A stretch of DNA of 62,974 nt, the filler included, from Licmophora abbreviata (Eukaryota), in assembly GCA_900291995.1 (NCBI GenBank). It is 29 parts of 29 records of this genome, joined end to end, with 100 filler letters (N's around TTAATTAATTAA, not from the genome) between each part and the next. Parts side by side here need not be neighbours in the genome. Positions count along the whole stretch, not along the records: positions 8,947 to 10,885 come from OLMU01005548.1; 28 more parts are not named here. One strand, 5' to 3'. The notes under the pieces were generated by a model. The model saw nothing but the letters and a program-made list of their open reading frames with translations, was not told where the DNA came from and made no database searches. Position 1 is the first letter of the stretch; each line of letters opens with the position of its first letter. Below, piece by piece: positions 2-10,885 of the stretch. The position numbers and the translations under genes are program-made.

Positions 2-1537
2 GATTGTGACGGCCATAACGCTTCCACAAAGTACCGCGCGTATGTTGCCGTGGGATCCAACATGGGCGACAGGTTTGGAAATATTGCTTCTGCACTGAGG
101 CTTTTATGTGACCCAGAATGGTGTTCCGATCAACATGTGAATGTCCGTGTCATATGCACGTCATTTCTCTATGAGACTGCGCCAATGTACGTCACGGACC
201 AGCCAGCCTTTTTGAATGGGGCCGTTTTGTTGGAGACCGATCTGGCCCCACTTGACTTATTGAAACGGATCAAGCTTGTGGAGAACGAGTTGGGGCGTGA
301 TTTTGAGACTGCTAGGAACGGACCCCGTCCCGTTGACCTGGATATTTTATTGTATGACTCATTCGACGAGGAAGGCTCATCGCCTGTGGTTATGGATACG
401 CCAGAACTAACCGTTCCACATCCTCGTATCGACGAGCGTGAGTTTGTCTTAGGGCCGCTCTGTGAGCTTGGTGTGGAATCGCGACACCATCCTACTCTGA
501 ACGTAACTCTTGGGGACTTATTTGCTGGGCTGAAACACAGCGAGACGATTGTCGAGGATGAAGACAGACCTGTTCGAGTAATACCGCTTCAGCGAGGTCG
601 TATGCTGCGTTTCAACGGGACTCTTATCATGGGTATTCTCAATGTGACTCCGGACAGTTTTAGCGACGGGGGCAGATTGCAAGGCTCTGTGGACCTGGCT
701 GTTAAGCAAGCTGTGCAGATGGTACAGGAGGGCGTGGATGTCATCGACGTTGGCGGCGAGTCGACTCGCCCCGGGGCCAAGGAAGTCGCAATTGAAGAGG
801 AGATGAATAGAACGATTGCCACCATTCGAAGAATACGAGAAGGTAGGCGTGTATGTGGACAAAGGTATTTCTACGTACCGATGCCAGATAGGTGTTTTGG
901 CTCACACGCGCAATGAATCCACGAACGCACAATTGCAGTGTCACCAGATGTCCCAATTTCTATCGATACACGACACGCGGTGGTGGCTCGAGAAGCTGTT
1001 TTAGCCGGCGCTGATATCGTGAATGACGTTTCTGGTGGAACGTTTGATCCTGACATGCTGCCTACAGTCAGCAGCTTGCAAGTCCCAGTCGTTCTTATGC
1101 ACATGCGAGGGACGCCCGAAACTATGCAGACCATGACAAAATATGAGGACGTAGTTGTTGAGGTGGCTAGCGCTTTGAACAGTCAATCTTGTGCAGCGGA
1201 GGAGCTGGGCATTTTACAGTGGCTGCACATTCTCGACCCTGGTATCGGTTTTGCCAAAGACTTGCAAGGCAATCTACGGCTGTTGAAACGGCTGGGCGAG
1301 CTCAGGACACGGATCCACAACATGCCTGTCATGCTGGGAACAAGCCGAAAAGGGTTCATTGGGAAACTTTCTGGGGCGAATTCACCAGAGGATCGAGATT
1401 ACGGTACGATAGCATCCTGTGCAGCCGCCTTGTGTCTCGGGCACAAGCAGACAGACTGTAGCATTCTTCGAGTGCACGACGTGAAGGGGGCGAAGCAGGC
1501 CTTTTCGGTCGTGGATGCCATCGTCAACGCAAAATAG
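2..1537 (+). CDS. Bifunctional HPPK-dihydropteroate synthase (folate synthesis), 5' partial; intron 843-938
   Basis: HPPK motifs AYVAVGSNMGDR, YETAP, GPRPVDLDILLY, VPHPRI; DHPS motifs MGILNVTPDSFSDGG, DVGGESTRPGA, ISIDT, DPGIGFAK, GTSRKGF, LRVHDV. A GT..AG intron at 843-938 joins the two ORF-track frames. Confidence 0.95.
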
Positions 1538-7042: not shown

Positions 7043-7139
7043 AGTGGGTGTGAGTGTGAGTGTGAGTGTGAGTGTGGGAATGAATGATGGCTCGAATCGT
7101 ATCATAGCGAACAGCTGTGCTCACAGCTGTGCTCACAGG
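7043..7139. repeat. (GTGTGA)n microsatellite plus a 12-bp tandem ACAGCTGTGCTC x2
   Basis: Directly visible: gtgggtgtgagtgtgagtgtgagtgtgagtgtggg and acagctgtgctcacagctgtgctcacagg. Confidence 0.85.
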
Positions 7140-8227: not shown

Positions 8228-8846
8228 ATGGCAGCTGAGAAAGCAGCTGCAAAGTTGCTTTCGGCCTCCGTCAACGGACGAGTGGTGGACGTTCCGAGTG
8301 GTGCCACCCTTTTGGACGCCATTAAAGCTGCTGGAGCTCGTGTCCCCACGCTTTGTTACCATCCAGCCTTCAAGGCGAGTGCTACTTGCCGAATGTGTCT
8401 TGTAGAGGTGGAGAATACTCAGCAAAGAGGAAGCCGGCGATCCGGAGGAGAAACCCACCTATCAGCCGCCTGCCACACTCCAGTCGAGCATGGGATGGTG
8501 GTGACTACAGATACAACGGAGCTCCAAAAGTTCCGAAAGCGAGATTTACAGCTTCTCCTTGCGAGACACCCCAACGAGTGCATGCGATGTGAAGCGTCTG
8601 GAAACTGCAAGTTGCAGGACTTAGTTCAGGAATTCCAGGTAGAAGAGCTGTGGCCCAAGTCCAGTCGTGGATCTCCCGAGCATCCGGAGCATCTTCTGCA
8701 CGACCATACTAGTCCTGCGATTTCTCGCGACATGGACAAATGCATCGAGTGTGGGCTGTGCGTCAAGGCCTGCGAGGATCAGCAGATCGGAGCAATTGGC
8801 TTCGCCGAGAGGGGATACGGCCAGCTTCCCATCACCGCCTTTGATA
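8228..8846 (+). CDS. hydA: [FeFe]-hydrogenase N-terminal FeS domains ([2Fe-2S], His-Cys3 [4Fe-4S], first 2x[4Fe-4S] ferredoxin motif); truncated by spacer
   Basis: VPTLCYHP..CRMCLVEV..AACHTP; HPNECMRCEASGNCKLQ; RDMDKCIECGLCVKAC..IGFAERG. An in-frame TGA at 8090 with no ATG before 8228 makes 8228 the start, barring an upstream exon. Confidence 0.88.
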
Positions 8847-8946
8847 NNNNNNNNNNNNNNNNNNNNNNNNNNNNNNNNNNNNNNNNNNNNTTAATTAATT
8901 AANNNNNNNNNNNNNNNNNNNNNNNNNNNNNNNNNNNNNNNNNNNN

Positions 8947-9939
8947 GAGCCACACGTGGTATCGATCATGCCCTGCACCGCCAAAAAGGAAGAGGCCGTC
9001 AGGCCTGGACAGCGAGGAGACATTGATGCTGTGTTGACCACACGTGAGCTCGCCAAGATGATCAAACATAGAGGTATTCCATTCGCCTCGCTTCCTGACG
9101 ACGGAGAGTTCGATAGTCCTCTCGGAGAGTCCACCGGCGCCGCGGCTCTCTTCGGTGCTAGTGGTGGAGTGCTCGAGGCGGCGCTGCGGACCGCAGCTGA
9201 TGCTCTAGGAATCAAAGATGCTCCGATAGATTGGCACGCTGTCAGAGGAGTAGACCGCCGAGTAAAGGTCGCCACTGTTCCTGGCGTGGGGTCTGTCGCA
9301 GCCTGTAACTCTATTGGTGCCGCGATCGATCTGTTGAGTAATGAATCTTGGAAAGACGATTACGTCATGATCGAAGTAATGTCATGTAAGGGTGGATGCC
9401 TGGGAGGGGGAGGTGAGCCAAAGAGCGATGATCCAGATATTCTGGAAAAGCGCGCGGACGGGATCTATTCCATCGACGAGAAGGCAACAGTACGAAAGAG
9501 TCATCAGAACAAGGAAGTCCTTAAGCTATACGACGACTTCCTCGGTCATCCTCTTTCCGAGCAGTCCGAAAAATATCTTCATGCCACGTACGCACAGAGA
9601 CGCTCTCCTCGCGAGAAGCTAATGCGTTTCCTAGATGCCGTCGACCACCGGGACGGCATGGTGGCTTCGAGTCTGTTCGCAGAATGTGGTGAGTGGCGTA
9701 CAAGTCCAGATACAGAAGCCATCCAAGGAAGAGAAGCCATAAGCACATTCATTAGCACCATCCTTCCTCCTCTTCCAAAACTGAAGCCTGGAGTGGATCG
9801 TCCTCGTCATAAGATGGTAAATCATGCAGAAGGCACAGACGTGAGGACGCCCATGGGCGATACAGTACATTTCGACATTGATATCGATTCTGAAACAGGT
9901 CTCATTGCAGCCTTGACCCGTATACCGTTGGAGAGCTAA
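8947..9939 (+). CDS. hydA: [FeFe]-hydrogenase H-domain C-terminal part, small-subunit segment and C-terminal SnoaL/NTF2-like extension
   Basis: L2 motif SIMPCTAKKEE, VLTTRELA, FDSPLGESTGAAALFGASGGVLEAALRTA, L3 motif EVMSCKGGCLGGGGEP, small-subunit RKSHQN..LYDDFLGHPLSEQSEKYLHATY, then about 110 extra residues. Confidence 0.93.
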   Translation, partial: EPHVVSIMPCTAKKEEAVRPGQRGDIDAVLTTRELAKMIKHRGIPFASLPDDGEFDSPLGESTGAAALFGASGGVLEAALRTAADALGIKDAPIDWHAVRGVDRRVKVATVPGVGSVAACNSIGAAIDLLSNESWKDDYVMIEVMSCKGGCLGGGGEPKSDDPDILEKRADGIYSIDEKATVRKSHQNKEVLKLYDDFLGHPLSEQSEKYLHATYAQRRSPREKLMRFLDAVDHRDGMVASSLFAECGEWRTSPDTEAIQGREAISTFISTILPPLPKLKPGVDRPRHKMVNHAEGTDVRTPMGDTVHFDIDIDSETGLIAALTRIPLES

Positions 9940-10548
9940 GATTGCAGAAATGTTCAGTCTCCGGTGGAAATATTACAAGCCAGTCAGTTCGCAACATGTT
10001 GCTCCTCTCTAGCTAGAGTTGGGGCCCTCCTTTCAGCATCTACCTACGAGTAGTATTCAAATTTATCCTTCCACTCTTGTTGTCATTCTACAAGCCCACC
10101 AAATATCCGGCCTCTTTTGTTGAAGCTCCATTTCAGTCTCAGAAGAGAATTCAAACGGTCCGGCAGGTCGACACTCAACAGATTTAGACTCTTAGCTTCC
10201 TGAAAGACCGGAAGATCGCCACCAGAGGAAGCGTCTGTGGAAAACTGCTCTTTATTGTGAGATTTCTTCAATGGCGACGCGGAATCGCCACAGCCAACAA
10301 GGTGCATTATCCTGACGCACACGCAAGCTAGCCCACTGGTTGTTTCCTGGCTGATTCCTCACAAACACTTCCAAGTATTGTACGTGCGCGATTCATTCAC
10401 TGCAAGCGGAAAAGGAAGGAAGATGAGCCCCCGCGACCTCGAAGCCCTTTGATCTCCATACAGTAGAGGTAAGTCTGTTTATTAACTTGTTCCATAGTTT
10501 CTCTGTAAACATCTATTCCTATTACCAGTACCAACACTTTCAATATAG

Positions 10549-10885
10549 CTAAAGACGGGCAGCAGTGCCCGTGTAAACACCAGCACCGCCAACGATGAGG
10601 CGCCTCAAATGCTCCTTGTAGCCTGGACCTGGTTCGGTCTGGTTGAGTGGATCGCGTCGCGCGGCCTCCATAATTGCCGGATAGACATCACCGTCAGACT
10701 TTCCAAGTGCACTTTTAAGCATAAAGTCTGAAAAGTCACGGGCATCCACTAGCGCAACCGCATTGGGACGAATCGCGTCCAGCATTGTGAGCACATTTGA
10801 CCTCACCCACGTTGCCTGCTTGGCGGACAAGTAGCCGTCCTCCAAGAAGTCGCCCATGTCCTCTTCGAGCCAGTATAGACCAAAG
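10549..10885 (-). CDS. ACOX: Peroxisomal acyl-CoA oxidase, C-terminal fragment
   Basis: IRPNAVALVDARDFSD..LKSALGKSDGDVY..ARRDPLN; C-terminal ARL is a PTS1-type signal. Confidence 0.9.

Follow-up and report, generated by a model that had tools for sequence, protein, structure and literature searches.

The window analysed here, a stretch of 62,974 nucleotides from Licmophora abbreviata (assembly GCA_900291995.1), carries a gene for a homologue of the M3-type group-A [FeFe]-hydrogenases (HydA), and we find that this homologue has a C-terminal tail which is real and is translated in one frame with it. Junction (RRSPR) and tail together comprise 113 amino acids (P0002; positions 9598-9936, + strand), and structure prediction shows this segment to be a genuine NTF2-like (SnoaL-type) domain with a modelled alpha+beta cone fold. 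The fusion is common in databases, yet group-A [FeFe]-hydrogenases with this accessory domain form an undescribed class, of which the window gene is one more member.

A hydrogenase homologue with an NTF2-like tail

Behind an assembly spacer, the reading frame from 8956 to 9939 (+) is uninterrupted over 327 codons to a TAA stop (9937-9939, +). The canonical hydrogenase end lies at about nucleotide 9600 and is followed by 112 more codons (9601-9936). The original prediction had claimed an extension of about 110 amino acids behind the usual terminal motif LHATY; this was confirmed in frame up to the stop, and both its coordinates and its peptide were correct, the start given (9607) being the P of PREKLMRF. 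A run of this length is rarely due to chance, because the probability that 112 sense codons stay open, (61/64)^112, is ~0.005.

The tail is also conserved. The whole C-terminal piece of 327 amino acids is 79% identical (260/329) to the environmental protein P0076, and the tail itself shares 64% identity with P0004 and 39% over 98 amino acids with a bacterial orthologue (E 2e-13). Searching 1.84 billion representative proteins with the tail alone gave 31 matches at E≤0.001. Two of these, P0018 (1548 amino acids) and P0020 (2287 amino acids), were rejected as spurious, being repeat proteins that match a short GEW motif many times. In all other matches with enough upstream sequence, the hydrogenase end (LHT.YA.R.S.R) stands directly before the tail. 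Complete fused open reading frames (ORFs) with the same junction were recovered from the choanoflagellates Acanthoeca spectabilis (755 amino acids) and Helgoeca nana (776 amino acids), both as EukProt transcript-style records, and one cluster among the tail matches includes an MMETSP transcript. Fused ORFs are therefore on record in transcript assemblies of relatives. For the window itself, no RNA run covering this stretch was found; the one sequencing run listed, of guessed kind (share 0.07), yielded only one contig piece of 163 bases (9903-10041), whose loose ends resemble adapter, and this is uninformative on expression.

Upstream of this region an N spacer interrupts the gene, which would suit an explanation in which the tail lies outside the protein, as read-through of untranslated sequence, an assembly mis-join or a separate downstream gene. 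We consider this extremely improbable, since junction and tail sit on a single uninterrupted piece (8947-10885), the tail is 39-67% identical in proteins from bacteria to choanoflagellates and always lies directly behind the hydrogenase, and its structural model is confident.

That model, an AlphaFold2 prediction from a 26-row alignment, reached a predicted local distance difference test score (pLDDT) of 93.7 and a predicted template modelling score (pTM) of 0.86. It shows three helices on a curved sheet, with helices at residues 4-16, 20-25 and 45-54 and strands at 27-34, 81-83, 89-96 and 103-110. In a Foldseek search the model matched 325 PDB chains (E≤0.001), and the best matches were all NTF2-like, with template modelling (TM) scores of 0.58-0.70; 5tgn ranked first, followed by ketosteroid isomerases, the lasalocid-biosynthesis epoxide hydrolase and limonene epoxide hydrolase. 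The tail family profile likewise found 5tgn in the PDB (E 1.9e-4), and the clusters nearest to the tail in the ESM Atlas were all SnoaL/NTF2 (0.94-0.95).

Against Pfam, the result for the window tail was divided. SnoaL_4 (PF13577, E 4.2e-4) and SnoaL_2 (PF12680, E 2.2e-3) both matched, as the original prediction would have it, but both matches remained below threshold (20.7 bits where 24 are required, and 19.0 where 27 are required, respectively). No NCBIfam model matched the tail. In this respect it differs from the tails of bacterial proteins of the type of P0094 (Variovorax ureilyticus, 691 amino acids), which score above the SnoaL cut-off: two such orthologues reach 28.3 and 28.5 bits on SnoaL_4. 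Taken with AlphaFold2, Foldseek and the ESM Atlas, these orthologues bear out the SnoaL/NTF2 fold that had been proposed.

Distribution and descent of the fusion

The original prediction knew of no hydrogenase-SnoaL fusion, and a search for the same architecture in bacteria and transcriptomes had been suggested. The architecture was found there, in Pseudomonadota and in choanoflagellate transcript assemblies, and the premise of novelty fails because all 70 profile matches, 79 of 80 bacterial loci and the choanoflagellate proteins carry the fusion; that it is common in databases is the very outcome the original prediction had named as counting against itself. When a tail-only profile was run against longer proteins, 70 matched at E≤0.001, most of them ~690-720 amino acids long, and every one carried both PF02906 and PF02256. 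SnoaL Pfam hits were already precomputed on 26 of them, and five bear an NCBI name of [FeFe] hydrogenase (some "group A") or [Fe-Fe] hydrogenase large subunit domain protein; these five come from Variovorax ureilyticus, a Thioalkalispiraceae metagenome-assembled genome (MAG), two Pseudomonadota MAGs and an Aquabacterium.

The bacterial loci were the best 80 of 565 confirmed hydrogenase relatives (query P0094; one genome per prokaryote species). Almost all are from Pseudomonadota and are ~70-76% identical to P0094 over the whole 690 residues. A hidden Markov model of the tail matched 79 of the 80, the sole miss being truncated by a contig end. Word-based protein searches with single sequences gave no matches, and the profile search shows these to be failures of sensitivity, not absences. 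Of 401 evenly sampled genomes of the phylum, three had the fused gene (loci L081-L083 in genomes G001, G023 and G134), and no other genome of the sample had a group-A [FeFe]-hydrogenase over the NCBIfam cut-off. Eight other genomes of the sample had weak matches to the tail profile (27.8-35.3 bits) in free-standing frames of 163-201 amino acids. No publication describing a hydrogenase-SnoaL/NTF2 fusion was found in a search that covered literature other than subscription journals and supplements.

What the window contributes is a eukaryotic nuclear member and, together with the choanoflagellates, a eukaryote-type branch. The organisation of P0094 follows the same order as that of the window protein, with Fer2_4, the NuoG-type 4Fe-4S region, two 4Fe-4S motifs, the H-domain, the small-subunit-like segment and the NTF2 tail behind the same junction, and the two tails are homologous over the 98 amino acids given above. 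The window gene differs from the P0094 type in its eukaryotic nuclear context, its short N-terminal extension and its place in a separate supported group with the choanoflagellates. By its homologous tail, its junction and its D.RD, W.T, RH, F and R residues, it belongs to the NTF2-tailed HydA family.

This grouping was obtained with FastTree from 111 C-terminal regions. It is an unrooted tree, since the 401 sampled genomes yielded no group-A hydrogenase without the tail that could serve as outgroup. It divides at 97% local support into 25 eukaryote-type rows (the window, both choanoflagellates and environmental sequences) and 86 proteobacterial rows (every named Pseudomonadota and two loci labelled from other phyla). 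Comparison of the two groups shows a fusion that is apparently older than the split of the bacterial and eukaryotic branches. The two loci labelled outside Pseudomonadota among the 80 are from a Polyangiaceae MAG (L058) and a Sulfurimonadaceae MAG (L078); the former adjoins a Burkholderiales row in the tree, a possible sign of transfer or of faulty binning.

Several eukaryote-type members (the window, at 8228-8260, and P0079, P0081, P0121, P0037 and P0063) have N-terminal extensions before Fer2_4 that are missing in the bacterial proteins. These measure ~10-40 amino acids in the relatives of the window and ~45-60 amino acids in the two choanoflagellate proteins, where they are Arg/Ser-rich and look like a putative targeting presequence. 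Long inserts of low complexity, either acidic, Gln-rich or Ala/Gly-rich, occur in the H-domain and the tail of environmental relatives (P0031, P0036 and P0024). The inserts in the tail sit between the W.T strand and the next helix, and this loop thus tolerates large inserts.

Conserved residues, orphan status and the possible role of the tail

We propose that the tail is most likely a non-catalytic ligand-binding or regulatory module on the H-domain of an orphan, non-classical hydrogenase-like enzyme. To this statement as a whole we give roughly even chances; our confidence in the domain identity of the tail is far higher. The tail would meet the enzyme via a short junction with two invariant Arg and one near-invariant Ser, and would keep a conserved pocket of Phe, Thr and Trp, with Asp, Arg, Asp, His and Arg conserved elsewhere in the domain. 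Seated beside the H-domain, it would tune or gate the redox enzyme, and the enzyme so gated would operate in oxic cells independently of the classical maturases and is probably no H2-evolving hydrogenase of the classical kind.

Conservation was counted over 56 family sequences, with residues numbered as in P0121. Twelve positions of the body (E313, E314, E317, C337, C338, S357, M391, C393, K396, E399, C530 and C534) are invariant in all 56; they comprise the H-cluster cysteines, the Lys and Met beside the cluster, and the Glu, Ser and Cys residues taken as the proton path. On the tail side, R601, R605, D616, R618, D619, W633, H672 and F695 are invariant, and S603, D613, T635, R671, D682, P686, G688 and R711 are near-invariant. 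In the window (+ strand, numbering of P0002) the conserved tail residues are encoded at 9643-9645 (D16), 9649-9654 (R18-D19), 9694-9696 (W33), 9700-9702 (T35), 9808-9810 (H71), 9871-9873 (F92) and 9919-9921 (R108).

A profile alignment to the ketosteroid isomerase 1e97_A placed a family Phe at position 16 and the near-invariant Thr at Asp40, with the conserved Trp two residues before this Thr; position 103 was not reached. We take Tyr16 and Asp40 (Pseudomonas putida numbering) to be catalytic residues of that enzyme. The Phe and Thr found in their place therefore indicate that the catalytic residues of ketosteroid isomerase are missing and that conserved side chains remain at cavity-facing positions. 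This bears on whether the tail is itself an enzyme of the SnoaL, ketosteroid isomerase or limonene epoxide hydrolase type (isomerase, dehydratase, cyclase or hydrolase), with a small substrate for which the iron-sulfur chain would serve the redox step. Many of the NTF2-like Foldseek matches are enzymes, and Asp, Arg, Asp, His and Arg are conserved in the tail family. With the catalytic Tyr and Asp replaced, no substrate-pathway genes conserved within 5 kb and no NCBIfam model for the tail, we hold a catalytic tail to be very unlikely.

For the body, the best solved relatives are HydA1 of the electron-bifurcating HydABC complex (PDB 8a6t and 7q4v) and Clostridium pasteurianum CpI (4xdc and 1feh), with scores of 461, 413 and 356 bits; it is closer to HydA1 (461 bits) than to CpI (356 bits), and the M3 cluster layout and motifs L1-L3 are common to all. 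HydA1 and CpI stop a few residues after LHT.Y and have no NTF2 tail: P0094 aligns to 8a6t up to its residue 576, which corresponds to residue 568 of the 571-residue chain. HydB/HydC or ferredoxin serve these enzymes as partners, and they require HydEFG. The bacterial genes with the tail, unlike these, have no conserved partner, and HydG was found in none of 20 genomes. For the tail, the closest solved relative both by sequence (E 1.9e-4) and by fold (E 1.5e-6, TM 0.58-0.60) is Sthe_2403 of Sphaerobacter thermophilus (5tgn). The RDG and H(R) motifs of the tail family profile align with it; it differs in being a stand-alone protein of 111 amino acids, ~23% identical, with no hydrogenase attached and an uncharacterised function.

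These relatives also bear on an assembly role, in which the tail would form a homodimer or oligomer, or dock an unlinked redox partner, and bind no ligand. NTF2-like domains commonly pair through their sheets. The 5tgn entry contains four chains of the same sequence, and the structural or sequence neighbours of the tail include ketosteroid isomerases and the beta subunits of ring-hydroxylating dioxygenases, which are oligomeric or structural proteins. Moreover, HydA1, the nearest relative of the body, is a subunit of the multi-subunit HydABC, yet the tailed genes have no conserved partner gene close by, a gap that an assembly role could fill. An interface-only role leaves unexplained, however, why conserved residues occupy the cavity-facing positions of ketosteroid isomerase, and we regard it as unlikely, while giving it some weight. 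A ligand-binding or regulatory module has an analogue in the ECF sigma factors with a C-terminal SnoaL_2 extension, where the extension is an intramolecular regulatory module and not an enzyme. This may illustrate by analogy how the tail works; the host protein and the process are unrelated.

The orphan status of the family was assessed by maturase searches, in which Thermotoga and Bacteroides positive controls scored over the cut-off; some of the genomes searched were MAGs. HydG was absent from all 20 genomes carrying the fused gene even at E≤0.001, HydE gave no match over cut-off in 10 such genomes and HydF none in five. Neither HydE, HydF nor HydG was found among the 28 ORFs of the window. 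Within 5 kb of the bacterial fused genes there were no conserved neighbours, the largest shared cluster covering 7 of 79 loci, and at two inspected bacterial loci the neighbours were unrelated and included neither maturases nor NuoE/F-like partners. The bacterial fused genes stand alone. They occur in genera such as Thiomicrorhabdus, Hydrogenovibrio, Mariprofundus, Gallionella, Nitrosomonas, Hyphomonas, Duganella and Variovorax, whose lifestyle we take to be aerobic or microaerophilic.

Such hosts would make sense of an oxygen device, in which the tail caps the H-cluster or a gas channel, or senses O2 and shuts the enzyme off in air: it would explain a fusion in hosts that presumably respire oxygen. 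The only group-A [FeFe]-hydrogenases in the 401 phylum genomes (3/401) are the tail-bearing ones, and the window copy lies in the nuclear DNA of a eukaryote. The family alignment reveals no conserved cysteines or metal-site motifs in the tail, and if the maturases are absent there would be no [2Fe] subcluster and little to protect. The protection known from CbA5H also relies on a cysteine near the H-cluster and not on an added domain, according to the portion of PMC7854748 available to us. An oxygen device therefore appears doubtful.

Hydrogenases of this kind have been noted before. The accessible part of PMC4967309 cites an earlier judgement of alpha-proteobacterial HydA without maturases as inactive or differently used, with a C-terminal domain unmentioned there. 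In Thalassiosira pseudonana, the sections of PMC10407231 (2023) at hand report a HYDA, present in a few centric diatoms, that groups with Proteobacteria (bootstrap 100), no HYDEF or HYDG, and H2 evolution that is barely detectable; the words 'C-terminal', 'domain', 'SnoaL' and 'NTF2' do not occur in these sections. The excerpt of PMC8003979 agrees that this diatom has a hydrogenase gene and no identified maturation factors, and that of PMC3660698 is silent on a diatom hydrogenase. As far as can be compared by description (PMC10407231, in part), both the phylogenetic position and the orphan status of T. pseudonana HYDA (B8CGB6) match those of the tailed family, to which it probably belongs.

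Several points weigh against a ligand-binding or regulatory module on a non-classical enzyme. The full-length model of P0121 is less certain than that of the tail, with a mean pLDDT of 78.4 and a pTM of 0.74; the iron-sulfur N-domain is at 32-52 and the junction at 94-95. The contact between tail and H-domain is one that we infer from the short conserved junction only. The pocket-facing residues are mapped for three positions only, through the ketosteroid isomerase alignment, and the Pfam scores of the window tail are below threshold. The invariant H-cluster and putative proton-path residues argue for real hydrogenase chemistry and fit poorly with 'not classical', and there may be an as yet unknown maturation route, or maturases that are absent only from incomplete genomes. 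On the other side, a junction that is short, conserved and predicted at pLDDT 94-95 weakly suggests that the tail may be fixed rather than tethered.

A bolder version, which we consider rather improbable, would make the NTF2-tailed HydA proteins a separate functional class in oxic cells without HydE/F/G, with a [4Fe-4S]-only site or an unknown cofactor route and a pocket that binds the small molecule sensed, reduced or delivered. If this is true, the eukaryotic branch would show that aerobic protists retained such an enzyme for some purpose besides making H2 by fermentation.

The general view of [FeFe]-hydrogenases is that they belong to anaerobes, are sensitive to oxygen and require three dedicated maturases. 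The tailed family keeps all active-site and proton-path residues in oxygen-respiring bacteria in which no maturases were found, and in aerobic protists. The question of such 'orphan hydrogenases' was raised by 2016 at the latest, to judge from the available text of PMC4967309, and is sharpened by the barely detectable H2 of the diatom in the part of PMC10407231 cited above. The binding or contact partner of the tail would be the most direct handle on their role.

The gene and its surroundings in the window

Twenty-eight spacers, each N44-TTAATTAATTAA-N44, divide the window into 29 pieces (56 N runs between 2648 and 61376). These spacers interrupt many of its ORFs, among them those for the hydrogenase, for an AMP-binding enzyme and for an acyl-CoA oxidase. 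The DNA is eukaryotic and nuclear, encoding poly(A) polymerase, CAS/CSE1, V-ATPase subunit a, ArfGAP and Josephin proteins, among others.

The 5' part of the hydrogenase gene (8228-8846, +; ATG at 8228) corresponds to the F-domain of M3-type HydA. It encodes the short N-terminal extension, followed by Fer2_4 (E 9.9e-19), the NuoG-type 4Fe-4S region (NADH-G_4Fe-4S_3, E 1.1e-13) and the first 4Fe-4S ferredoxin motif (Fer4, E 9.6e-6). A spacer of the form N44-TTAATTAATTAA-N44 follows at 8847-8946 and masks ~168 residues of the H-domain, including L1 (TSCCP); the second ferredoxin motif would lie here too. The number of hidden residues follows from the NCBIfam group A6 model (NF040763, 571 positions), on which the two halves of the gene cover positions 4-181 and 349-571, so that coverage stops at 181 and resumes at 349. 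In the nearest relative, the environmental protein P0076, L1 reads FTSCCPGW, and the motif is invariant in the 56 family members.

Downstream of the spacer, the C-terminal part of the H-cluster domain is encoded at 8956-9411 (+; Fe_hyd_lg_C, E 6.4e-30, residues 1-152 of the 327-residue piece). It contains L2 (IMPCTAKKEEA) and L3 (EVMSCKGGCLGGGGEP), identified with patterns that we assume for these motifs (MPCxxKxxE and ExMxCxxGCxxGGGxP, respectively). The small-subunit-like segment follows at 9436-9600 (+; Fe_hyd_SSU, E 6.4e-21, residues 161-215) and ends in ...YLHATYAQR, where the junction and tail begin. Order, strand and complementary profile coverage agree between the two halves, from which we infer that they probably form one gene. 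On TIGR02512 (cut-off 405.95 bits), the C-terminal piece scores 148.4 bits over positions 211-374 with ~168 residues masked; bacterial orthologues reach 431.6-440.1 bits.

A (GTGTGA)n-type microsatellite lies at 7046-7078, ~1.15 kb upstream of the hydrogenase ATG. On the other side, a C-terminal fragment of acyl-CoA oxidase (ACOX, E 5.4e-31; 10549-10857, - strand) is convergent with the hydrogenase gene and ends in ARL, which we presume to resemble a peroxisomal PTS1-type signal. At the start of the window (2-916, +), an HPPK domain and, behind it, the beginning of a pterin-binding (DHPS) domain share one frame; this is the fused enzyme of folate synthesis.

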